A DNA stretch of 64,000 nucleotides, from positions 3,584 to 67,583 of the IMG/VR virus record IMGVR_UViG_3300009702_000785; one strand, written 5' to 3'. This document shows positions 2,037-13,465 of the stretch, one piece after another. Below the pieces are notes generated by a model that was not told where the DNA came from, made no database searches, and worked only from the letters and a program-made list of their open reading frames with translations. Within the stretch, counting starts at the first letter, position 1. Each line of letters opens with the position of its first letter. Source of the DNA: a virus. The translations under genes and the position numbers were made by a program.

Positions 2037-2604
2037 GAACGACATCCACTTCAATGTCTGCTTTGTTGGTAGGTTTTGTAAAGGCAAGGGCATTGAAACT
2101 ATCTGTGAAATTATAGAAGAGATGGATGATTGCCGATTCCACTTCATCGGACAATTCAATGGTACAGATAAGCAACGAGATGCTTATCCCACCACCAATG
2201 TTTTATATGACTTGGCCAAACAGTATCCTGATCGAGTTATATTAACGGGACACATTCCACAAACAGAGTTGGCACAATATGTTAAGGATATGGATGTATG
2301 GCTATGCCCCTCCTGGCATTGTCCTTTTGAATTAGTTGGGTTGGAAGCAATGGCAAGTAAAGTTCCAGTCATTTTGACAAAAACAGGAGCTTTCTTAGAA
2401 TATGGACAACATGAAGTTAACTCCTTGATGGTTGATACAAAAGATTCGCAGGGTCTCAAGGATGCTATTTATCGCATTAGAGATGATCACGAGCTTGCCC
2501 ATCGTTTGATTGATGGCGGTCTGAAAACTATTCAAAACCACACTTGGGATATTGCAGTAGATGGGCTAAATAAAGTATATGAGGGTATGAATAATGGCAA
2601 TTGA
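2029..2604 (+). CDS. GT4 glycosyltransferase, C-terminal (nucleotide-sugar binding) domain
   Basis: VCFVGRF.KGKG, PSWHCPFELVGLEAMASKVPVI (EX7E-like region). ATG at 2029 with GGAGG at 2018-2022. Confidence 0.85.
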   Translation: MNRNDIHFNVCFVGRFCKGKGIETICEIIEEMDDCRFHFIGQFNGTDKQRDAYPTTNVLYDLAKQYPDRVILTGHIPQTELAQYVKDMDVWLCPSWHCPFELVGLEAMASKVPVILTKTGAFLEYGQHEVNSLMVDTKDSQGLKDAIYRIRDDHELAHRLIDGGLKTIQNHTWDIAVDGLNKVYEGMNNGN

Positions 2605-3142
2605 ATACACACTACATACATATGGTCCTTGGTACAGGGGCCACCCGCCTTTGATTTACAATCAAGGGCAAGACCGATTTGAGTTCGAGTCTGTCAGAGT
2701 AGAGGATGCAGGTAGGGAGGAGGATTTGTACTTTGGAGCAAAAGGCACTGTATACAGTCTTATTGTTGATGCAGTTGACACAGAGCTTGCTGCTGTACAA
2801 AAAACATACAGGGATGAGATTATAGATGTTCTTTGTCAGGCGTGGCTGACTAAAGTTAACATGGTGGTATTCTCTCAGGAAAATAATCAAGTAGTCTGTA
2901 GTTTGCACATAGACCTGCCTCCTGGCGCTGGACTGGAAGTTAGAGAAGATGGAACGATCAACTATTGGATTAATGGGGTGGAAAAACGAGAAGTGACTAA
3001 CCTTCTGAAGATTGTCTTGCAGAAATTGATTGCCAAAGCATATGCTGCTACTGCTGGAATTGGAGATGCAGATCGCAGAGTTATTGTCACTAAAAACATG
3101 GTTTTAGATTTGGTTAATCAGTTTGGAATTATCGTTACATAA
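2594..3142 (+). CDS. Hypothetical protein
   Basis: 182-aa ORF overlapping the upstream stop; GAGG SD-like sequence. Confidence 0.7.
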   Translation: MAIEYTLHTYGPWYRGHPPLIYNQGQDRFEFESVRVEDAGREEDLYFGAKGTVYSLIVDAVDTELAAVQKTYRDEIIDVLCQAWLTKVNMVVFSQENNQVVCSLHIDLPPGAGLEVREDGTINYWINGVEKREVTNLLKIVLQKLIAKAYAATAGIGDADRRVIVTKNMVLDLVNQFGIIVT

Positions 3143-3165
3143 ATTGTCAGACTTCAGGAGAAATT

Positions 3166-3444
3166 ATGAAAAAGATAAACTTTTTTATTGGTGCAGTGAT
3201 TTTTATTACTGCCGTACTTGCGGGTTGTGGAGTGTTTGAAAACATAGTCGAGAGCCCTCCGGTTGTTGACGTTTTAGGGCTAGATTACAGTGCTTGCGTT
3301 GGCGATGGTTTTGACGTTTGCCTTGAATTTCTGTTGGATAATGACGAGGCTCTATTGGGCCAGGATGCCGGTGAATGGCTGTCTGATCTGTTAGAAAGCG
3401 TGAATTCAAATGGAATTGCTACAATATCCGCTGAAGACCTATGA
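3166..3444 (+). CDS. Predicted lipoprotein
   Basis: MKK + hydrophobic core + lipobox LAGC; AGGAG SD. Confidence 0.75.
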   Translation: MKKINFFIGAVIFITAVLAGCGVFENIVESPPVVDVLGLDYSACVGDGFDVCLEFLLDNDEALLGQDAGEWLSDLLESVNSNGIATISAEDL

Positions 3445-3446
3445 AA

Positions 3447-3476
3447 CCGTTCATTAAAACCTACGGAAATCTGGGA
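3447..3476 (+). repeat. IS607 right-end subterminal inverted repeat
   Basis: CCGTTCATTAAAACCTACGGAAATCTGGGA matches the reverse complement of 10735-10764 at 24/30 positions, with a perfect 13-nt core. Confidence 0.88.
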
Positions 3477-3620
3477 GACAAATAAAAATCTCCCACTTCC
3501 TGTTTAATTGACATTTCTACGACGCCCACCTGACTACTGTCATGAACCTTAGCATCTCCCTGCCCGTTTATTCCGATGGAACTCACCGTATCATATCTCA
3601 TCAAATTGATTGCAGCATTC
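3447..3620 (-). ncRNA. Predicted TnpB omegaRNA (right-end RNA) scaffold; 5' boundary approximate
   Basis: Position overlaps the tnpB 3' end and runs to the right end (...GAACGG), as established for TnpB systems. Hairpin GGGAGA...TCTCCC is present. Confidence 0.6.
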
Positions 3621-4677
3621 AAGTCTCTATCCAGAGACTCACCACAATTATAGCATTCATAAACTCTTTTGTCCAGTCCTAATTCAGACTTAACATGTCC
3701 ACACTTAGAACATGTCTTGCTAGACGGATAAAATCTATCCGCATACTCAACAGAACCACCAGACCATAACTGCTTATACTCCAAAGTGGTTCTAAACTGT
3801 CTCATGCAAGCATCATGGACAGATTTAGCCAAACAATGATTCTTACCATTCCCTTAACATTCAAATCCTCCAGAACCACAACTGATGGTCGCTTGGTTTT
3901 TACGATATCAGTCGTTGCTTTCTGTATTGAGTCTGTGCGAATGTTAGAAATCTTCATCCACAGTTTAGCTATCTTCTGTTGTGTAAGTTTTCTTCTGCGA
4001 CTGCCTTTCTGTTGACGTTTCATCATGTGCCTTTGCAGTCGTTTGATTTTCTTCTCATATTTATGGAGTGCCTTCGGATTATCATAACTCATCCCATCAC
4101 TGCATGTAGCCAGTGATTTCACACCCAAGTCGATTCCCAAAACTTCTCCACTGGTTTGTTGCGGTTCTACTTCTTCGTTGACCAGAACTGACACAAACCA
4201 TCTACCTGCCCTTTCAGAAACAGTAGCAGATAGAATATGTTTATCAGTTGGTAAATAATCTGCTTCTTTCAGTCTAATCCAACCAAGTCTCGGTAGACGC
4301 ATTCTACGACTCTCAACTTTGATTGTGCCTGTCAGTCTGAAACTACCAATGCCTTTGCTCTTTGATTTGAACTGAGGAAAGCCAACTTTCTTGCTCTCTT
4401 TGCAACCACGAAAAAAGTTCTTGAATGCCTTTTCCAAGTCTCTCAATGATTCTTGCATGGCACATTTAGAAACTTCATACATCCAAGGAAATTCTTCCTT
4501 CTTTCGGGCGTTCAATTCTCTATGGAGTTGCATAGCATTGGGTTTAGATGTTTTCTCTTGTACTTGATTGAGTCCCCAGTTATAAGCGAAACGTGCAGAC
4601 CCAGCGTGCTTCAACAAAGCGGTTCGTTGCTTGTTGTTAGGTTTGAGTTCAGTTTTGTAGGCACGCTGTATTGTCAA
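3461..4677 (-). pseudogene. tnpB: IS607-associated TnpB, frameshifted near 3843
   Basis: RAYKTELKPN, GIDLG (RuvC-I), VVLEDL (RuvC-II), CSKC/CYNC zinc finger, DRDLNAAINL (RuvC-III). One A is missing in ATG GTA A(A)G AAT CAT. Likely TTG start at 4677 after GGAGA. Confidence 0.85.
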
Positions 4678-5636
4678 AGATTGTCTCCATATTCTTTCTC
4701 TAAACATCTATCTCCGAGACGTATAGATGGAATGTGCTTCTCGGTTAGTTCTGGATGAGACTGAGCAAAATCATAAATCCATTGAGCGGTTTCCTTATTT
4801 TGTGCAAACACGAATCGTTCTGCATAACATAATTGCATAGAGTTTTCACGAACAATATTGTCTGCTGTTAGTGTCATCTGAAAACCATTAGACATAGATA
4901 GACACCCATAGGTTGTTGGGCAGCCGAATGATAAAACGCAACTTGGTGAAATGGGATAATTTATAACGATGCCTAAAGATGCCACTCCAAGACTACCAGT
5001 AGTTGGGTCTTCCATATAGCCACCATCTTCCAATGGGATTCTTTTAGGCTCAGTGTCATTTTGCTTAACAACTGGATTGTCGGATGTTACCAACCTGTTG
5101 TCTGATGATAAACCAATTAGCCATGTTTTGTTGAGAATGTAAGGACATAGACTCTCTGATAATGATAAGAGGTTTTTAATTGAGTGATCTTTGAGTTGTT
5201 CTTGATATTCACATTCATCGCTATTTAACATAAACTCTTGTAGATGTGGCGAATTATGGTCTCCCTCATCTTTCAGGAATCTATGCATTATCGTGCCTAT
5301 TTGCGACCAACCTTTTCTATGAGACCAAGTTCTTACTAATTGCAAAGATATAGCAAAAGCCAAACATTCCTCTTCATCTCTTGTAAGGTTTGCATATGTT
5401 TTTTGTTCACATATTTTGTTAATAACAGGACAGATATGTGCTTCAAGGATAGAAATCTTTTTCTCTAAATAATCTCCATCTGAGGCGAGATAGAAATAGC
5501 TTTCTGCCGCAACTTTACTTATAGGAGCCTTATACACTTTGTTTGATACTTTGTCATAACACCAAACAGAACGTCTGTCATTACTCCAATTACGAAGATA
5601 AAATTGAGGCACCGTATGATTATTTTTAACTACCAT
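4674..5636 (-). CDS. DUF4238-like protein
   Basis: N-terminal NHTVPQFYLRNW and LVTSDNPVV motifs; YPISP motif. Confidence 0.75.
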   Translation of the reverse strand: MVVKNNHTVPQFYLRNWSNDRRSVWCYDKVSNKVYKAPISKVAAESYFYLASDGDYLEKKISILEAHICPVINKICEQKTYANLTRDEEECLAFAISLQLVRTWSHRKGWSQIGTIMHRFLKDEGDHNSPHLQEFMLNSDECEYQEQLKDHSIKNLLSLSESLCPYILNKTWLIGLSSDNRLVTSDNPVVKQNDTEPKRIPLEDGGYMEDPTTGSLGVASLGIVINYPISPSCVLSFGCPTTYGCLSMSNGFQMTLTADNIVRENSMQLCYAERFVFAQNKETAQWIYDFAQSHPELTEKHIPSIRLGDRCLEKEYGDNL

Positions 5637-6283
5637 TATTTTTCTGCCTTGAGTTGTTCTTCCATGAGTTTGCGTGCTTTTCTATTTTCGGCTGAACGCC
5701 TCCCATATATTCTATTCGAGAACGATGACATCAAAGACAGAATATCTTCTACCAATTCCTGCTCATAGGAAGTGCCGATTATCTCACTCATCCACTCAAT
5801 CTCTACATCGTGACTGGAAAAGTAGTCTTTCAGAAAGCCAACCATAAAGCGTGAGAGTCTGTCCTTGTGCTCCACGATAACCTTGTCAATCTTCTTCTGT
5901 TCAATCAGTTTGAAAAGACGACGGAGTTTAGGTCTATCGTCCTTCATTCCTGAACCGACTTCTTCAAAGGTCTGAATGACGTTGTATTTCTTATCTACGC
6001 AGTATTTGAGAATGCGACCTGTCTGACGTTCAAGGTCTCCCTTCTGTTTTTGTTCGTGAGAAGAGACCCGTGCATATACTGCAACACGAGTGCGACCATC
6101 TTTCTCTTTCGAGTCGGAAGTCTCACCCACGAATTTATCTATATCACAGACTCGATAACGACGGTGGTTTCCACCAGTCTTGATGGGAGTGAGGATGCCT
6201 GATTTATCCCATTCTCGGAGTGTATCAATGCAGACACCTAAACGGTCTGCTGCTTTTCCTATACTAATCAGTTGCTTGCTCAT
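5636..6283 (-). CDS. tnpA: IS607 TnpA (MerR-type HTH + serine recombinase)
   Basis: IGKAADRLGV...TLREWD...T.GNHRRY HTH; YARVSS catalytic Ser; EHKDRLSRF; ELVEDILSLM.SFS.RIYG.RS. Confidence 0.93.
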   Translation of the reverse strand: MSKQLISIGKAADRLGVCIDTLREWDKSGILTPIKTGGNHRRYRVCDIDKFVGETSDSKEKDGRTRVAVYARVSSHEQKQKGDLERQTGRILKYCVDKKYNVIQTFEEVGSGMKDDRPKLRRLFKLIEQKKIDKVIVEHKDRLSRFMVGFLKDYFSSHDVEIEWMSEIIGTSYEQELVEDILSLMSSFSNRIYGRRSAENRKARKLMEEQLKAEK

Positions 6284-6533
6284 TCCCTGTTAACTCCATA
6301 TCTTCAAACAGGGCGAGCCAGCGGTCGTATTGCTTTTGAAATTCCTCTGGAGTAGGAATTTCGTCATCAGCGAAATCGAACAACATGGGGAAGACTCTTC
6401 CGTCATCGAGTTCAAATTCGGTTTTAGTAACTCTGACAACCATTGGTCGCTCCTTCTTGACTCTGGACTTTCGTGATGTCCTTTGAGTCTTATTCTCCGT
6501 GCGACCCGTAGATTCCTTCTTCTTTCTGGACAT
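6264..6533 (-). CDS. Small hypothetical protein upstream of tnpA
   Basis: 89 aa, basic N-terminus and acidic C-terminus; GGAGA SD; overlaps the tnpA start. Confidence 0.6.
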   Translation of the reverse strand: MSRKKKESTGRTENKTQRTSRKSRVKKERPMVVRVTKTEFELDDGRVFPMLFDFADDEIPTPEEFQKQYDRWLALFEDMELTGNEQATD

Positions 6534-6551
6534 TTTTCAAGATTTCTCCAC

Positions 6552-7115
6552 TTATTCAAAAATATACATGTTCTTGCCGAAAACTTCCTCATCCACAGGC
6601 AATTTCACTTCATCCAGAGTGCCACGTTTAACCAAATCCATCCATTCCTGCACATTGCGGTTATTTACCTTGTTCTTGAAAGAGAAGTCATATTGCAAGG
6701 AACCTTTGGGGTATTTCTTGGAGTTCAAGAATACAATATTCTGAAAAACAGCCTTGATATGATCCTCAGTAATCGGCTCAAAGATGCTGATAATCTTCAG
6801 TAGTCTCATCCGACATTCTCGGATATTGTCTCGCATGATATCGACACCATATATGCATCTGAGAGCTTCCAAAGGTTTGTGATTTCGTTTAATCTTACGA
6901 ATCAGCACCCAGACCAAAAAGTTACCGTTACCACAGGCAGGGTCACAGAATGTTTTTCCTTTTTTCCACACTTCTCGTGGTAATTTGGCGAGCATCTTAT
7001 TTACGAGAGCGTTTGGAGTGAAGACTTCGGCTGTTTGTTTTAGCCTGTCTTCCCTTCTTTCACCGTGTATTTCATGCTCTAACTGTGCTGTTTCCATTAT
7101 ACGAACTCTTTCCAA
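6552..7115 (-). CDS. DNA methyltransferase SAM-binding subunit (motifs X-I-II, no NPPY)
   Basis: EVFTP (motif X), FCDPACGNGNFL (motif I), IYGVDI; no motif IV seen. Confidence 0.8.
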   Translation of the reverse strand: MERVRIMETAQLEHEIHGERREDRLKQTAEVFTPNALVNKMLAKLPREVWKKGKTFCDPACGNGNFLVWVLIRKIKRNHKPLEALRCIYGVDIMRDNIRECRMRLLKIISIFEPITEDHIKAVFQNIVFLNSKKYPKGSLQYDFSFKNKVNNRNVQEWMDLVKRGTLDEVKLPVDEEVFGKNMYIFE

Positions 7116-8317
7116 AAGTCGGCTCTGAAGTATTTGAACATTCTCCAGTCAATACGAAATCCACTCCACCGCACAGTCTCCAGAAATTCATAGAAAGCAT
7201 CGGATTCAAGTGCTTTCTTTAAGTTTTGGGCTTCATTTTTGCTTTTCACAACGAGCCCCATCGCCTGTTGGGTGATGCCAAAATCTCCATCCATATCAAC
7301 AATAACTTGCCAAGGTCTTCTGGCTTCGCCAAAAATTACCTTCGGAGTTCCAAAAAACCGCCCCTTACGGGATGAATGCCAATATCTAATTTCCTCTTTG
7401 CTTGTAGCATGGACACATGGATGTTTGAATCTTCCGCTTTTTTCTTCTTTCATCCAAGATTTCCGAGTCTCATATTCCTTATAACTGAATAAAACTTCGC
7501 ACTTGTCTTCTCCATCTTTAGCCAATAATCCACATAAAAACTCGAACTTACTATTGGGGAGAAAAGGAAGATTCTGCAAATCTATTTCCCTCTTTTTCCC
7601 TGTAATATCTTTAACAGTAGTTGGGCAAGTCGAAGTTCCCTTGTGTAAAATGTACCAATCATAAGGTGTGGAAGCCTTGAATGTTTTCATGCCATCCGAT
7701 TCATTGTGAAGCTCAAGGTATTGCACATTGTGAGACGTAATAATGGGCCAGAGTTCATTATCTGGCTTTCGCCAAATAGATGGGTGTACATGACAAAGAT
7801 GACCATCTGTGTTAGATATTTTCAATGACAAGTCAACAAACTTATCCCATAACGTATTTCTCGATCCACTACCACCATTCTTTTTGTTAGTTTTAACAGG
7901 TGGCTGATATGGGGGGTTCATTACGACAACATCAAATTTCTTCTTCGGTTCAGGCATTATTTCCACTCCTCTTTTCTTCGAGTAGGTCACTGTCAGCGTC
8001 TTGCAGCCCATTGCTTTGGCTGCGTCAAGTTTTTTTTCGGCATCGGCAGCAAAGGTGATTTTGGTGGGCTTGACTCGGAAAGTGTCTAACAAAACATCTA
8101 CAAATTCCAAGTTGAACAGCACAAGTATATTACTATTTTTGAGATTTCTGAACTCAGAAACCTTCCTCAAAATATCTTCACACAACCAGAACGGTGTATG
8201 CACAACCTGCAACTGCCCATCATCTTTATAAGTGGCAAGTTTCTCAATGTACGGTCGAAGCCCATTCTGCTGAAAAGACTTGGAATTATGAATTTTGTCA
8301 GCAAATGCAAGTGTCAT
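7097..8317 (-). CDS. Amino-methyltransferase catalytic/TRD subunit (Eco57I-like)
   Basis: FDVVVMNPPY motif IV; motif I degenerate (NILVLFN); C-terminal TRD-like region. Confidence 0.8.
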   Translation of the reverse strand: MTLAFADKIHNSKSFQQNGLRPYIEKLATYKDDGQLQVVHTPFWLCEDILRKVSEFRNLKNSNILVLFNLEFVDVLLDTFRVKPTKITFAADAEKKLDAAKAMGCKTLTVTYSKKRGVEIMPEPKKKFDVVVMNPPYQPPVKTNKKNGGSGSRNTLWDKFVDLSLKISNTDGHLCHVHPSIWRKPDNELWPIITSHNVQYLELHNESDGMKTFKASTPYDWYILHKGTSTCPTTVKDITGKKREIDLQNLPFLPNSKFEFLCGLLAKDGEDKCEVLFSYKEYETRKSWMKEEKSGRFKHPCVHATSKEEIRYWHSSRKGRFFGTPKVIFGEARRPWQVIVDMDGDFGITQQAMGLVVKSKNEAQNLKKALESDAFYEFLETVRWSGFRIDWRMFKYFRADFWKEFV

Positions 8318-10002
8318 TTTGCCCTCCTAAAAAGGCTTTTGATAACGTCTTTGTTCCCAGTTTTCAGTTGTTTCACAAATTCGTCAGAGTAACAATGTTG
8401 TTCGTCTGATATTTCATCAATTTCTATGCGATGATAGAACTGTAAAACATCTTGCTGGGTGATCCCTCTCATGCTCGGCGGTAAAGAATCATCTGGATCA
8501 TCGGTAGGAGCAGGTTGCAAATTTGCTGGATTTACTAATTCTGATGGGTCAAACGCATAGTCACTGCGAAGATTTACGAGCCAGTCACGATATCGCTTGT
8601 AAAAATCTTCCTTATCCTCAAAACAATAAGGAACAATAACATCATATTTGGGCTTCACGTAGTTGACATAATCACCAACTTGTAGTTCTCCAGATTCTAT
8701 ACGCTCTCTGTCAAATGGGTGTAATCTCGCCCCTCTTCCAATGTTCTGCTGAAACTTAGTGAGATTACATGCTCGTAGAAACACAACGCCAGTCAGCATA
8801 GGAATATCTAATCCCACACCAATCATATCAACGTGAAAGATAATTGCTTCATCAGTGTCCTTCATGTCCCAAACAGAGTGTAAAAATTCTTCTTTGCGTC
8901 GATTGGAAACCAACTTGTAGTGATGACCATCAAACTCAATTCCCCAATCAACACATAACCCGTAAATCTTGATATTAGGGTTGGACTTTCTAAGTTTTTT
9001 GAACTGTCGAGATTCAAACAACCCCCTCATATTGCCTTGTCCATTACATACGACGAGCATTTTAGCACCAATCATATCTGGGTAATCTGACCGTCGCTTC
9101 ACGACTTCTCGGTGTTTTGTAAAAGCCTGATAAATCATATCTGCCTGAGCATTGAATGCTCTTGAATCGACATCTGGTGTGATATTAGAGAACTCAAATT
9201 CATCATCAATGTCGAGTATGCCGTCAATTTCTGGATTTGTTCCTACTATGTGCAGAACTGGACCAACAATGGCTCCTGCTTCGATTAGTTCTCTTGGGGA
9301 ACGTCTAAATACAACAGGTCCGTAAACATCCTCATTGTTCATTCCTTTGCCTTTAGAGGATGCTGTTATTCTGGGGGTAGCAGTTGCGAAGACTTTTTTG
9401 TCTGCATCCAACTCAGTCGCTGCGAAGAAATCATCTTCACAAACTAAAAGCTCCGACTTTCCAGTTGGAAGAAAGTGTGCTTCGTCATAAAAAGAAAAAT
9501 CAACGTGAAAGCCTGCTTGACGTACAGACTTGTTAGAATGATAAGTCGATATCACAAGAACGTTGTAATTAGAGCGAACCAAGAAGTCTACTCGATCCCG
9601 TAGTTTCTTGGGATTTGTTGTACTATAAGCAGGAATTGTGCCTTTAGTACCAGCCTTCTTATGGGCTTTTTCGTATTCAATTCCTGTCTTTCCAACAGGA
9701 TCAGAACCTACAAAAATCAGATGCCACTTTCTTTTACCTTTTCTGTTCTTATTTAGATGAGCATTGCAAGCCTTCGCCCACTGTTTGTTCAAAATAAGAC
9801 GTGGCGTGAAGAAAACAGAGACGAATGGAGTGCTCTTTATTTGAGCAAGCCGAAACGCTATTTCACGACCTATAACCCCCTTGCCGCCTGCTGTGGGTAA
9901 ATCCAGTCTACCTTTGACAATTTCATCGGGAAGAAAGGAGAAAACTGCTTCCTCCTCATAATCCCACAGTTGCTTGATGTCGTCTCTGATATCTCTACTC
10001 AT
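8314..10002 (-). CDS. SF2 helicase/translocase (restriction-type)
   Basis: LPTAGGKG Walker A, FYDEAH Walker B, FATATP motif III, GVGLDIP motif V, QNIGRGAR motif VI. Confidence 0.9.
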   Translation of the reverse strand: MSRDIRDDIKQLWDYEEEAVFSFLPDEIVKGRLDLPTAGGKGVIGREIAFRLAQIKSTPFVSVFFTPRLILNKQWAKACNAHLNKNRKGKRKWHLIFVGSDPVGKTGIEYEKAHKKAGTKGTIPAYSTTNPKKLRDRVDFLVRSNYNVLVISTYHSNKSVRQAGFHVDFSFYDEAHFLPTGKSELLVCEDDFFAATELDADKKVFATATPRITASSKGKGMNNEDVYGPVVFRRSPRELIEAGAIVGPVLHIVGTNPEIDGILDIDDEFEFSNITPDVDSRAFNAQADMIYQAFTKHREVVKRRSDYPDMIGAKMLVVCNGQGNMRGLFESRQFKKLRKSNPNIKIYGLCVDWGIEFDGHHYKLVSNRRKEEFLHSVWDMKDTDEAIIFHVDMIGVGLDIPMLTGVVFLRACNLTKFQQNIGRGARLHPFDRERIESGELQVGDYVNYVKPKYDVIVPYCFEDKEDFYKRYRDWLVNLRSDYAFDPSELVNPANLQPAPTDDPDDSLPPSMRGITQQDVLQFYHRIEIDEISDEQHCYSDEFVKQLKTGNKDVIKSLFRRAK

Positions 10003-10648
10003 TCGATTCTAATGCCTTCAACCAAGAGTCTCTGAATGTGTTCCAAAAATGAAGATTATTGTCAACTTTTCGTCGCAAATCTCGTCTGGTAATTTCGTGA
10101 ACTTCTGGCAACATAAAACCTGCCGCGTTCACACCTAAACATTTCCCAGAATGGATGACTGTCATATTACATTTTCCATTTTCATCAGGTATCGAGTCAA
10201 CTCCAAAGCCACCAATATCTGGATGGGAATAAGAATTTTTGGCAAAATTCCCCAGATGGTCGTTATTAGTGCTTAGTTCATGATTCGCTTGTCGATATTT
10301 GAATTGCACGGTGTGGATTTTGCCGTTTAGACCAAGACCGCTACCATCTACACCTCGGTCTTCTCCCTCTTCTATTACGTTATAGGATGTAGGTTCGATA
10401 CCAACTTTTTTGTCGGTGCCAAATACTCTTATGAAGCATTCGCCAAATAGCTCGAATCCATCCCCTTTGTATTGATTGAGAAGTTCTTCATCGGCAGGTC
10501 TAATCCATCCGTCATCTGGACCTGTAGCATAACGTTCTGCTTGTTTTTCAAGTCTGTTGGCAAAAGTGTTAAAAAGGGTACAATCTTGAAGCAGACCAAC
10601 TGGGTCAATGCATCGATGCAGAAACGGATGCGTTAATTGAACAATCAT
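9995..10648 (-). CDS. Mrr-like PD-(D/E)xK restriction endonuclease
   Basis: GDGFELF...DRGVDG...VQFKY (E...D...QxK pattern); GGAGA SD. Confidence 0.72.
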   Translation of the reverse strand: MIVQLTHPFLHRCIDPVGLLQDCTLFNTFANRLEKQAERYATGPDDGWIRPADEELLNQYKGDGFELFGECFIRVFGTDKKVGIEPTSYNVIEEGEDRGVDGSGLGLNGKIHTVQFKYRQANHELSTNNDHLGNFAKNSYSHPDIGGFGVDSIPDENGKCNMTVIHSGKCLGVNAAGFMLPEVHEITRRDLRRKVDNNLHFWNTFRDSWLKALESNE

Positions 10649-10689
10649 GTTTCGTCTCCAGAGTCATTCTCTTCACACACCACGCTCTC

Positions 10690-10719
10690 ATTATACCATT
10701 CAACTGCCAGAGAAAACAA
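10690..10719 (-). promoter_or_regulatory. Sigma70-like promoter for the cargo operon
   Basis: TGGTATAAT extended -10 (10690-10698), about 40 nt upstream of the 10648 start. Confidence 0.6.
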
Positions 10720-10734
10720 ATTTCTCCAACATAT

Positions 10735-10764
10735 TCTCAGATTTCCGTAGATTTTTCAGAACAG
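10735..10764 (-). repeat. IS607 left-end subterminal inverted repeat
   Basis: Minus strand CTGTTCTGAAAAATCTACGGAAATCTGAGA, 24/30 identical to the right end. Confidence 0.88.
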
Positions 10765-10772
10765 TTCTTTAA

Positions 10773-11126
10773 CCCCTTACTTCCGCAGAAGATGCGTTAA
10801 AATCAATCCTAGAGGCTCTGGGATACCTTGTAGTCCCATTTAATCACAGGACAAACGTTGATCCTGCAAATATTGTCTATATGCAGATGCCTGTGCACAG
10901 ATATGCTGTGGATTTTGCTCTGCCGTCTGCACATATTTGTTTAGAAGCAGACGGAGATTGGTGGCATCGAGCCGCCCAGAAGAAGTTGAGGGATCGCAAC
11001 CGTGACGTTAAAATACGCACACTGGGATGGCAGGTACTTCGGTTCCAAGCCAAGATACTAGAGAAATACCCCTCCATTGCTATTGAACAGGTCAGGCGAG
11101 GTATTGAAGGATTACAAACAGTCTAA
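10773..11126 (+). pseudogene. DUF559/Vsr-like endonuclease gene interrupted by IS607 (first codons at 3441-3448)
   Basis: Open frame from 10773: PLTSAEDALKSIL...YAVDFA...LEADGDWWH...RDRNRD...LGWQVLRF. Confidence 0.8.
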
Positions 11127-11153
11127 TGCTACGAGATTACGTTCATAGGTTTT

Positions 11154-11528
11154 GAGAGAAAGAAACCCCTTCCTTTATGGAAGGGGGAGGAGTATAATGC
11201 ACCACTGCTTTGCTCTTTGCTTTGCTCTTTCAAAAGTCAATAGGTATCTGGTTGTTCTGAAAAACAGTTCCTTCAGGACGTAAAACCTAGTAAGGTCGCC
11301 GTTTAAGTTCTCAGTTAATTCTCCTTAAGGCACTTCCTTTGGAAGAAAACGGTTTCACGGGAGTTATGAACTTAAACATTCTCAAAAGGCTATATGTTTT
11401 TTGAGAGGGCTGATTCAAGTCTATGGTTCTGTTAAGAATCATTGTAAAGCCTTACGCTCTCTACTTAATCCTTGCTTTGAGATTAAGAGATTGAGCAATC
11501 CCCTCCCTTTATGGGAGGGGTTCTTGAA
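11154..11528. mobile_element. Non-autonomous IS200/IS605-family element with a structured non-coding core (omega/HEARO-like)
   Basis: Twin subterminal hairpins (CCCCTTCC-TTTAT-GGAAGGGG, CCCCTCCC-TTTAT-GGGAGGGG) with the same architecture as the 18030-19771 element. Internal 10-bp inverted repeat GTTTAAGTTC/GAACTTAAAC. No ORF. Confidence 0.7.
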
Positions 11529-12288
11529 CTAAGGTCTTATCTTGCTTGAGAGCAGACCTGATCTTGGCAAGAGCGATGTTTTGAATCTGCCGCGCTCGCT
11601 CTTTAGTTACCTCATAGCAGTTGCCAATCTCAACCAGCTTCATGCCTTCAGAAAAACGCATATGGACTACTTCCTGTTCTTGATCTGTTAATCCACTGTA
11701 GTTCACGGCAACTTTTATACGGTCAACCAGGAAGTCGATTTTACCATCATTCTCCAGAGATTTATCTGGCACATCGATATCCGAAACATCCAGTATAGGC
11801 GAACGACTCAGCAAGGATGCAACGTGGTTGTACTGATGCAACAATGCCCTGTAAGCATAAGTCGAGAATCGATGGCCACGCCACGGATCAAAGCATTCAA
11901 CTGACCTGATTAGGGTCATGCTGCCAGCGCTGATGAATTCAGTTTTGTCTCGATATACTGCGGCACAAGTTGACTTACGCAGACATTCATAAACTAGACC
12001 CATATTCCCTGAGACCAGACGGTTTCGCAAGAGCATAAACATCTGATACCAGAACTTGATCCGCTTACTACCTTCATTCTGTGCCTTGTAAAGACGGAAC
12101 TTTACAAAGTGGAAAGCCTTGAAGTATGCCTGCTCATCTGGGATGGGTGAGGTATCCTTACTGAAAGCAGTTGTGATCGGCTTGTCGTACAGATCGATAG
12201 GGTTCAGGTATTTCTTTGCGGCTCCCTTTTGTTCTAGCTCTTTTACATGTTGTTTGTTGTATTGATTGCAGGTTGTAGAAATAGCCAT
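11509..12288 (-). CDS. RNA polymerase sigma-70 family factor
   Basis: Region 2 (RNRLVSGNMGLV...FDPWRGHRFSTYAY) and region 4 (LTDQEQEVV..RF...LVEIG....VTKERARQIQ). GGAGG SD before 12288. Confidence 0.9.
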   Translation of the reverse strand: MAISTTCNQYNKQHVKELEQKGAAKKYLNPIDLYDKPITTAFSKDTSPIPDEQAYFKAFHFVKFRLYKAQNEGSKRIKFWYQMFMLLRNRLVSGNMGLVYECLRKSTCAAVYRDKTEFISAGSMTLIRSVECFDPWRGHRFSTYAYRALLHQYNHVASLLSRSPILDVSDIDVPDKSLENDGKIDFLVDRIKVAVNYSGLTDQEQEVVHMRFSEGMKLVEIGNCYEVTKERARQIQNIALAKIRSALKQDKTLVQEPLP

Positions 12289-12391
12289 GCGGAAGCCTCC
12301 GAATTGGGTGTATCCTTTTGTACTTATAGGATACAACATTCTGGAGAAATGTCAAGAGGGACGGCAGAGAAATCTACCGTCCCTCTCAATT

Positions 12392-12769
12392 TTACCAATA
12401 GAGCCATCGAATGTTGTTTCGATAGCCAGGGAGGATCAAGTCCTCCCATTCGCCCGTCAGAAACGCTTTACGTATGGCTGCCTTTTCACGACTCCGCTGT
12501 TGGCGATTTTGATCCCGGCGAAATTCTGCTGGGACCGGCCCCATACCGCATTGCTCGTAGCAAACCCCGTAGTTCTCACGGACCCAACGATCACGCTTGT
12601 TGTGCCAGTGATCCCATTCGGGATTTTTGTTCCACCATACCGTGCCCGGCACGGAGTAAGGTGGTTCAGGGTGGGTTTTGTCGTACAAGTCGTAGGCTGT
12701 GAAGCTTTGACACTTCCGAGTAGCCTTACGCAAGTCACGACGTTTCCCGTCGTTGTTGCTGTCACGCAT
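12392..12769 (-). CDS. Hypothetical basic protein
   Basis: 125 aa, co-directional with neighbours, GGAGA SD. Confidence 0.55.
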   Translation of the reverse strand: MRDSNNDGKRRDLRKATRKCQSFTAYDLYDKTHPEPPYSVPGTVWWNKNPEWDHWHNKRDRWVRENYGVCYEQCGMGPVPAEFRRDQNRQQRSREKAAIRKAFLTGEWEDLILPGYRNNIRWLYW

Positions 12770-12854
12770 TTCAGGTCTCCTTTGTAAGTTACCTAAAGCA
12801 TAACAATCCTCCCCTTGCTACGAACCAGAACCATTTCATCATGACATTACCCCT

Positions 12855-12965
12855 TTAGCCGACGAATAGCGATGAGATGGCGTTGAAAATACCGCCAAAG
12901 GTCAAAGCCCATAGGCCGGTGGCGAATACTGCAAAGCCTTCACCAAAAAACTTGAAAAAGTCCAT
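12855..12965 (-). CDS. 36-aa hydrophobic peptide (MDFFKFFGEGFAVFATGLWALTFGGIFNAISSLFVG)
   Basis: Translated by hand; GAGGAG SD; one predicted membrane segment. Confidence 0.55.
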   Translation of the reverse strand: MDFFKFFGEGFAVFATGLWALTFGGIFNAISSLFVG

Positions 12966-13081
12966 CTGATTTCTCCTCTAAAGAACTCTACTCTTGGTCG
13001 TTGTGACCACTTGCACAGGTACAGCCTACGAGGCTGAATCCTGACATTACAAAGTACATTATAAGGCATCCTGCTCCGAAG

Positions 13082-13465
13082 TCAAGAAAAAAACTTGGAA
13101 ACGGCGTCCAACTCTTCAGAAGCCTTGGTGGGATCAGAAGTTGCGTGGGCGATGTTTTTGGGCAATTCGATAAAATTCACGAATCTACGTCTGAATGCCT
13201 CGACAATTTCCCTGCATTTGGGTACTGCGTCGTCGCCCTCAACTTCGATAAGTACTGCTGGACCACTTATGATATGTTCGATATTGCGTGCGAAGAAGTC
13301 TTTGCCTTTATGTTCAGCATAAAGTGCTTCCGCCTCAGTCTTGCTTAGTGTTTTGCAGGTCATTCGTGAAATCTTCAGGTCTGTGTATTCAATCTCACTA
13401 ATAACCAACCCGATTAACTTAAGTTCAACACCATCAGGCTTGACCATTACGAGCGTTTTTTCCAT
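13082..13465 (-). CDS. ndk: Nucleoside diphosphate kinase
   Basis: EKTLVMVKPDGV, HKGKDFF, ISGP, NIAHATS (catalytic His). Confidence 0.92.
   Translation of the reverse strand: MEKTLVMVKPDGVELKLIGLVISEIEYTDLKISRMTCKTLSKTEAEALYAEHKGKDFFARNIEHIISGPAVLIEVEGDDAVPKCREIVEAFRRRFVNFIELPKNIAHATSDPTKASEELDAVSKFFS

Follow-up and report, generated by a model that had tools for sequence, protein, structure and literature searches.

The DNA considered here is a stretch of 64,000 nucleotides (the window) from IMG/VR virus record IMGVR_UViG_3300009702_000785, covering positions 3,584 to 67,583 of that record. The record is 133 kb long with a CheckV completeness of approximately 30%, and its source is therefore a huge phage. 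Positions 3449-10774 of the window hold an IS607-family element of 7,326 bp with eight genes on the minus strand. The flanking phage genes (515-3444 and 10773-11126) are on the plus strand, and everything from 3461 to 10648 runs opposite to them. On the element strand the order is left end (LE), nuclease, helicase, the two methyltransferase genes mtC and mtN, a small open reading frame (ORF), tnpA, a DUF4238 gene, tnpB, and right end (RE), and most of the internal genes have overlapping stops and starts. An earlier note on this DNA, made from the letters alone, had listed seven co-directional genes; the shared direction and the overlaps stand as described, while the number becomes eight once an 89-aa ORF upstream of tnpA is added.

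The element is very probably a single mobile unit, an IS607 transposon with two filled cargo slots seated in codon 3 of a DUF559 gene of the huge phage. One slot, between the LE and the small ORF with tnpA, holds the four-gene cassette, and the other, between tnpA and tnpB, holds the DUF4238 gene. With 7,326 bp and eight genes it does not have the compact layout of IS607, which is approximately 2 kb with tnpA and tnpB only, and it represents a variant of IS607 that carries cargo and not a new type of element. In the phage population the 7.3-kb block behaves as one insertion/deletion unit. The earlier proposal that a restriction-modification (R-M)-like operon and DUF4238 are carried together thus holds for the whole block, with the correction that the R-M set is Type ISP-like.

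Empty site and ends of the element

The allele data are the assembled contigs of the sole public run with the phage, a subsurface metagenome that is probably the source sample, over 2600-11600. One run contig joins 3444 to 10771, omitting 7,326 bases, and four letters at the joint fit either side. Since the omission has exactly this length and these four common letters, the joined form equals the empty site that had been predicted, CTATGAAACCCCTTACTTCC, which is therefore present as a contig in this run. As an exact 20-mer, the empty site was not found in viral_contigs. The contig of the left flank stops exactly at 3448, as expected for a branch of the assembly graph. Word depth is approximately 10 on the flanks, mostly 4.5-7 within the element, and 3.2 for the joined form.

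The joined form is scarless, as is typical of IS607, and makes the interrupted ORF whole again. When 3441-3448 is connected with 10775-11126, the resulting 119-aa ORF begins with MKPLTSAEDALK, which bears out the claim that the flanks rebuild an in-frame DUF559 gene, and its ATG does overlap the stop of the lipoprotein gene (ATGA, with the TGA of the 92-aa lipobox protein). The downstream part has a 45-bit Pfam match to DUF559 in which residue 38 aligns with profile position 38, and the rebuilt gene is therefore essentially full length. In the occupied allele, a TAA lies in the DUF559 frame at 10770-10772, and up to 10881 the frame lacks a start codon.

The CC reported at both junctions is there; four letters are in fact common to the two, AACC on the plus strand (GGTT on the element strand). 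The GG core is identical at both junctions without target-site duplication, and the same is true of nine related elements. The inverted repeat between 3447-3476 and 10735-10764 was reproduced at 24 of 30 positions and extends to 3445-3476 and 10735-10766 (26/32), the longest inverted pair found by a repeat finder in 3000-11500. An exact 13-mer inverted pair has an expectation of approximately 0.5 per 8.5 kb. The repeat is taken as real because the 13-mer CTACGGAAATCTG is unique to the two ends (exactly two occurrences in 64 kb, inverted), because of where its arms lie, and because it is conserved in relatives. The RE arm abuts the tnpB stop and the LE arm abuts the start-less gene, and at least nine related elements, whose flanks are unrelated, have both arms at a fixed distance from GG.

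Apart from a common core, CTACGGAAATCT, located 12 nt from the GG core in the RE and 22 nt from it in the LE, the ends are dissimilar. The LE (112 bp) has the consensus GG/TT-nnn(n)-AAC-n-GTT...AAATCT, with GAACTGTTC in the window element, L003, and L035, while the RE (approximately 230 bp) has AGATTTCCGTAGGTTT-nnnn-GAAC/GG. The ends are thus asymmetric with subterminal repeat motifs and without long terminal inverted repeats, as known for IS607. Both are kept in L003-L009, L020, L022, and L035 despite unrelated flanks, and the RE motif is kept in 13 of the 14 tabulated related loci, the exception being L035 with TAAC for GAAC. No second copy of either end was found in the phage's own 133-kb record. 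The LE closes with an extended -10-like box that suggests an inward-facing promoter, and a sigma-70 scan listed no promoter in the LE. Coordinates are collected in Table 1.

Table 1. Features of the element and its immediate flanks (window coordinates)
Feature	Position	Strand	Remarks
Lipobox (LAGC) protein gene, 92 aa, left flank	3166..3444	+	No Pfam family
DUF559 gene stub (ATG AAA CC)	3441..3448	+	Includes RE-side core
RE-side GG core (CC on +)	3447-3448		Within AACC 3445-3448, same as 10771-10774
RE with omega-RNA-like scaffold	3449..3676	-	Ends AGATTTCCGTAGGTTTTAATGAAC then GG; overlaps tnpB 3' end
tnpB	3461..4707	-	Split in record by 1-nt frameshift near 3844
DUF4238 protein, 320 aa	4674..5636	-	Pfam PF14022
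tnpA	5636..6283	-	MerR helix-turn-helix (HTH) 7-43, Resolvase 67-207, YARVSS
Small ORF, 89 aa	6264..6533	-	Core VVRVTKTEFELDDG; overlaps tnpA; no Pfam family
mtN, S-adenosylmethionine (AdoMet) part of methyltransferase, 187 aa	6552..7115	-	Motif I DPACGNGNF; Pfam N6_Mtase profile 23-98
mtC, Eco57I-type methyltransferase NPPY part, 406 aa	7097..8317	-	Pfam Eco57I match; NPPY motif
Superfamily 2 (SF2) helicase-like ATPase, 562 aa	8314..10002	-	Motifs I, II (DEAH), III, VI; fold match
p217, putative PD-(D/E)xK nuclease of Mrr/MspJI type, 217 aa	9995..10648	-	Invariant D101, Q115-x-K117
Four-gene cassette extent	6532..10662	-	75-82% DNA identity to L033
LE	10663..10772	-	Element strand TTAAAGAACTGTTCTGAAAAATCTACGGAAATCTG; closes with TGGTATAAT, extended -10-like box facing inward
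LE-side GG core (CC on +)	10773..10774
Remainder of interrupted DUF559 gene, right flank	10775..11126	+

Cargo cassette and its relatives

Type ISP restriction enzymes are single chains of an Mrr nuclease, an SF2 ATPase, a coupler, a methyltransferase, and a recognition domain (PMC4666363). The cassette resembles them in having a putative Mrr-family nuclease, an SF2 ATPase, and a gamma-type N6-adenine methyltransferase in the order nuclease-helicase-methylase. It differs from them in being divided into four genes, in placing the NPPY part before the AdoMet part, in being phage-borne, and in showing no sequence match to the solved enzymes. The nuclease p217 has no Pfam match and its Atlas lead is Mrr_cat; the putative catalytic residues are invariant, and an AlphaFold 2 (AF2) model with a predicted local distance difference test (pLDDT) score of 92 has MspJI, EcoO109I, Card1, and AspBHI as best folds, all weak at E 2e-3 or weaker. 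The helicase motifs are likewise invariant. In a Foldseek comparison of the helicase model (pLDDT 68.5) with PDB folds, LlaBIII/LlaGI were at the top (4xqk and 5ffj, E 1.6e-15 to 5.5e-12), and generic SF2 helicases and HsdR came behind at E 1e-9 or weaker. Comparison of the cassette proteins with PDB chains by sequence gave nothing useful, and the fold comparison alone linked the cassette to Type ISP.

Motif I and NPPY, the pair that marks gamma-class N6-adenine methyltransferases, are both present. NPPY lies at residue 134 of mtC and motif I lies in mtN, and the methyltransferase is therefore split, with the catalytic/recognition part encoded first. This four-gene form is kept in seven loci, while Type ISP is defined by a single polypeptide; the cassette is a Type ISP-like, four-gene permuted analogue and not a Type ISP member. 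The most divergent cassette protein is mtC, which therefore probably holds the target-recognition region.

The cargo could also be a phage DNA-modification or host-takeover module rather than an R-M system, with the methylase shielding phage DNA while the nuclease and helicase degrade host DNA. Every copy detected is on a viral or huge-phage contig, PADLOC gave weak partial matches only (and no model match for DUF4238), and the R-M reading is built on sequence and predicted folds. However, the cassette has the domain complement of Type ISP enzymes, the E-values of the LlaBIII/LlaGI folds for the helicase are five orders of magnitude ahead of the rest, the NPPY part has diverged more rapidly than the other cassette proteins, which is the behavior of specificity subunits, and a DUF4238 gene of defence type is found beside the cassette in two settings. 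A takeover module is thus possible, if rather doubtful, and it and the R-M reading are not mutually exclusive.

The product of the DUF4238 gene matches PF14022 over its full length (129.3 bits, profile positions 1-280 of 281). In E. coli, protection against T7 was conferred by a DUF4238 protein of a P2 hotspot (bioRxiv 10.1101/2021.01.21.427644), and by analogy the gene in the element may be regarded as defence-type cargo.

Relatives of TnpA with 46-73% identity were found on 30 viral contigs, many of 200-530 kb. When size is taken as the distance between GG cores, L005, L006, L008, and L009 are canonical elements of 2.10-2.46 kb, while other relatives carry additional genes. L004 (4.59 kb) has the small ORF, tnpA, a LAGLIDADG protein gene, an ORF, and tnpB. 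Three elements enclose the same four-gene cassette between tnpA and tnpB: L003 (7.37 kb; small ORF, tnpA, helicase, mtC, mtN, nuclease, two ORFs, tnpB), L020 (7.50 kb; small ORF, tnpA, nuclease, helicase, mtC, ORF, mtN, tnpB), and L035 (7.41 kb; 269-aa ORF, small ORF, tnpA, nuclease, helicase, mtC, mtN, tnpB). Four elements with unrelated flanks thus enclose the cassette within ends of one kind. In the window element it comes before tnpA, whereas in these relatives it comes after, and the family therefore has two cargo slots. Other copies of both ends with different flanks, which the earlier note had suggested as a check, exist in L003, L020, L035, and the 2.1-2.5 kb relatives; a second copy of the exact element was not among them. 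The RE motif was found at 49 metagenome loci, and the cassette was at 0 of these 49 in the available DNA, many loci being short. In genome_contigs the RE pattern gave one contig of a metagenome-assembled genome, without a host clue. An LE pattern allowing for L003 gave only L003 itself in viral_contigs and nothing in metagenome_contigs.

The cassette is also found without IS607. In L033, L036, and L037 it consists of co-oriented, ordinary phage genes with no tnpA or tnpB nearby. The L033 copy (252-kb contig) has 75-82% DNA identity to the window cassette, and homology ends 14 nt before the nuclease ATG and approximately 20 nt after the mtN stop. L036 (548-kb contig, 7866-13213) has a DUF4238 gene directly upstream of the cassette and no IS607 genes nearby, and L037 (668-kb contig) has the order helicase, mtC, mtN, nuclease. 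The nuclease gene is last in both L003 and L037, and the L003 cassette is closest to that of IS-free L037. The window TnpA is closest to L035 (84%) and then L003 (73%), while the window nuclease and mtN are closest to IS-free L033 (82% and 85%), compared with 67% and 71% for L035 and 44% and 64% for L003. Because the TnpA and cassette identities are incongruent, repeated capture or exchange with resident copies is favored over a single ancient capture, as far as pairwise identities suggest. R-M genes lying outside a tnpA-tnpB unit had been named as a finding that would speak against the transposon; such copies exist in these three contigs, but they do not refute mobility and indicate capture instead.

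Several smaller observations concern the same family. An element of 2,718 bp (L065 1075-3793, L062 401-3119) has the same LE and RE motifs but lacks tnpA, and of TnpB only a remnant is left. Its cargo is a D12-class (Dam-like) adenine methyltransferase and an unknown protein of 213 aa, and it is a non-autonomous cargo carrier of the family. Five loci (L050, L054, L056, L067, and L070) have an LE-RE spacing of approximately 1.33 kb and no query-protein match, and two others (L060 and L087) have a spacing of approximately 220 bp with a short TnpB C-terminal remnant only. Both groups are miniature derivatives of the IS607 lineage, like miniature inverted-repeat transposable elements (MITEs), and come from several metagenomes. 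The LAGLIDADG-type protein of L004 (10675-12666; also L059 544-2532) has 663 aa and, with a 146-aa ORF, fills the tnpA-tnpB slot of the 4.59-kb relative. This is a homing-endonuclease-like gene within an element that already holds an RNA-guided nuclease. The gene interrupted in L035 (6350-7072) has a weak DUF4238-like N-terminus (E 0.003, below the cut-off). In L033, the gene just upstream of the IS-free cassette (9395-9964) encodes a 189-aa protein with a Hint/PT-HINT domain.

TnpA, TnpB, and a possible drive

The IS607 identity given to the element in the earlier note holds: TnpA (215 aa) has the HTH, resolvase domain, and motif of IS607 serine recombinases and scores 183.7 bits on the NCBIfam model transpos_IS607, for which the cut-off is 110. 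Like IS607 and IS1535, the element has a MerR-type HTH before the resolvase domain, tnpB downstream, GG cores, no target duplication, no long terminal inverted repeats, and scarless empty sites (PMC13565253). It differs from classical IS607 in its 7.3-kb length, its five extra genes in two slots, its conserved small ORF, and its huge-phage host. The small ORF (62-89 aa) precedes and overlaps tnpA in every close relative, with the core VVRVTKTEFELDDG..P..FD....P..EEFQ..Y; copies are at window 6264-6533 (-), L003 5327-5515, L004 9820-10023, L020 9763-10002, and L035 8075-8326. By its sequence and position it may be the "additional HTH protein" of PMC10691335 or a transposition accessory. A 100-aa ORF at 6290-6592 was also considered as the gene before tnpA and was rejected as an out-of-frame shadow of the 89-aa ORF.

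The run contig has one extra base after 3844, which gives a single tnpB ORF of 415 aa with D193, E280, two CxxC, and D360 in one frame, the RuvC triad and zinc finger of TnpB. TnpB of L035 likewise has 415 aa. Given this intact gene, the frameshift of the deposited record is an assembly error or a minor variant. The 3' 230 nt of the element have a fold conserved in nine relatives, in which 15 of the 30 predicted base pairs are maintained by compensatory double changes, and the RE region is accordingly described as omega-RNA-like, a putative scaffold. Rfam found no family in 3300-11000, and an RNA of the RAGATH-18 type, which is used by other IS607 TnpBs (PMC11061315), was not detected. In nine independent LE flanks, GG is preceded by (R)AG, while AC precedes GG in every RE (GAAC, or TAAC in L035). 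The apparent RAG/GG target sites are like published IS607 target-adjacent motifs (TAMs), GAGGG being the TAM of some IS607 TnpBs (PMC11061315).

If the element behaves as other IS607 elements do, TnpA would excise the unit as a circle with crossover at GG, rejoining the donor precisely, and would insert the circle at RAG/GG sites. The guide of the TnpB-omega-RNA complex is predicted to read into the flank (TTTCATAGGTCTTCAG... on the element strand) and would match the 3' end of the lipobox protein gene. TnpB would then cut the empty allele, which has AGGGG before the target, and spare the occupied allele, which has GAACGG there. In a co-infected cell, repair from the occupied genome would copy the whole unit, cargo included, and the cargo could methylate the phage's own DNA while cutting unmethylated DNA of competitors. 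On this basis the IS607 lineage in huge phages can tentatively be proposed, with less than even confidence, as a two-slot modular carrier that repeatedly acquires or exchanges the defence cassettes of resident phages (split Type ISP-like R-M, DUF4238, LAGLIDADG, and Dam-like methylase) and as a natural RNA-guided gene drive for an R-M weapon, the two alleles being a drive in progress.

A comparable logic has been demonstrated in the Clostridium botulinum IStron, in which target and TAM are TGGG and RE ends are TCGG, differing at position -3 (10.1101/2023.11.20.567912); the same work showed that a circle is formed as an intermediate, that the donor is rejoined precisely, and that TnpB cuts this joint (Zedaveinyte et al., 10.1101/2023.11.20.567912). 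The window family is alike in its apparent self/non-self logic, with (R)AGGG targets and RE ends of ACGG, while its circle, precise rejoining, and TnpB cutting are predicted here. Unlike the IStron, the window element has no group I intron (no Rfam match), its extra content is protein-coding cargo, and it is known from sequence alone. Rare cargo in elements of the TnpB "Ser-3" branch has been noted in a one-sentence observation (Altae-Tran et al. 2023, PMC10691335), so cargo carriage is not wholly unprecedented. That description fits the small ORF, the helicase cassette, and the LAGLIDADG cargo of L004, and these elements are probably the lineage of the window element; the Type ISP-like R-M identity, ends, empty sites, phage setting, and cargo slots are absent from it. 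The literature searched contained no IS607 elements with R-M-type or DUF4238 cargo, two slots, huge-phage carriage, or coexisting alleles, although a description elsewhere is conceivable. 

IS607 and IS605 elements are usually seen as minimal insertion sequences and TnpB as self-preserving only, while in this case 4-5 kb of defence-type cargo is bounded by ends of this kind. Tn7-like transposons are also vehicles for defence systems (PMC8649781), but they have unrelated chemistry and different targeting machinery and are far larger. The main interest of the element is its natural two-allele state together with a predicted guide aimed at the empty allele, which raises the question of whether OMEGA systems drive linked cargo among viruses in the manner of engineered gene drives. 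The element also offers a defined small kit for moving multi-kilobase cargo, consisting of the two ends, a 215-aa recombinase, and a 415-aa nuclease, and its cassette suggests the existence of a split form related to Type ISP restriction enzymes and carried by phages.

Present activity and alternative readings

Several points weigh against the view of the element as an active, cargo-carrying transposon. The allele evidence consists of assembled contigs from a single run, in which the joined contig extends just 26 letters past the joint on its shorter side. The empty allele may represent an ancestral strain that the element had never entered. No circle junction (back-joint) was found among the run contigs and no second copy of this exact element in the 133-kb record, run contigs, or contig searches; the flanking proteins have no relatives in viral_contigs, so there is no independent empty site from a sister phage. 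The deposited record has the tnpB frameshift. The 26/32 repeat alone is not above chance, another pair in the same region being 32 nt long with 78% identity. The nuclease fold match is weak and the helicase model only moderate, and restriction and methylation activities, guide, TAM, and LE promoter are all inferred.

Some of these points agree with a passive polymorphism, in which one past IS607 insertion is now a fossil without movement by TnpA and two strains spread or lose it solely by homologous recombination during co-infection. The single copy, the lack of a circle junction or second site in the run, and the frameshift are all consistent with this, as are further strain-level differences nearby. 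These are single-letter differences clustered at 11260-11479, at approximately 4-5 of a depth of 15-17, from which at least two strains of the phage coexist in the sample. TnpA, both ends, and the tnpB of the run contig are nevertheless intact, and the family has been active over evolutionary time, with many insertion sites, miniature derivatives, and cargo variants. A fossil is therefore unlikely, and it differs from an active transposon in present-day activity only.

Far less probable is a composite, in which the mobile IS607 would be tnpA-DUF4238-tnpB only (approximately 3449-6600), with the cassette resident and the repeat at 10735-10766 a chance match or a stray solo end. The cassettes resident without tnpA or tnpB in L033, L036, and L037 fit such an arrangement, as does the chance level of the bare repeat pair. 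However, the empty allele lacks all 7,326 bases with the cassette included, no LE-like motif is found beside tnpA (6283-6650), and the distal LE equals the LEs of relatives base for base, beside GG. Three other elements hold the same cassette within the same ends, and all eight genes run against the flanking phage genes.

That the joined contig is an assembly artefact, either a chimeric unitig made through the AACC overlap or a deletion made by the assembler, is hardly credible: the 26-letter side, the depth of 3.2, and the fact that such metagenome joints can stem from repeats would allow it, but a 4-base overlap cannot make a k=31 path, the joint coincides exactly with GG cores that had been expected in advance on the basis of IS607 biology and yields an uninterrupted ORF, the end of the flank contig at 3448 fits a real branch, and the depths sum (approximately 3 plus 5-7 against approximately 10).

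The flanks of the transposon show two further irregularities. A run contig omits 260 bases from 11184 to 11445, at a depth of 3.9 compared with approximately 15-17; this segment, located just after the DUF559 gene near the end of a sigma-factor gene, is also present or absent in the population. On the other side, two overlapping plus-strand ORFs in different frames, 1419-2036 (Glyco_transf_4) and 1828-2604 (Glycos_transf_1), are the N-terminal and C-terminal halves, respectively, of a glycosyltransferase of the GT4 family, and the split at 1419-2604 may be another single-base assembly error like that of tnpB.

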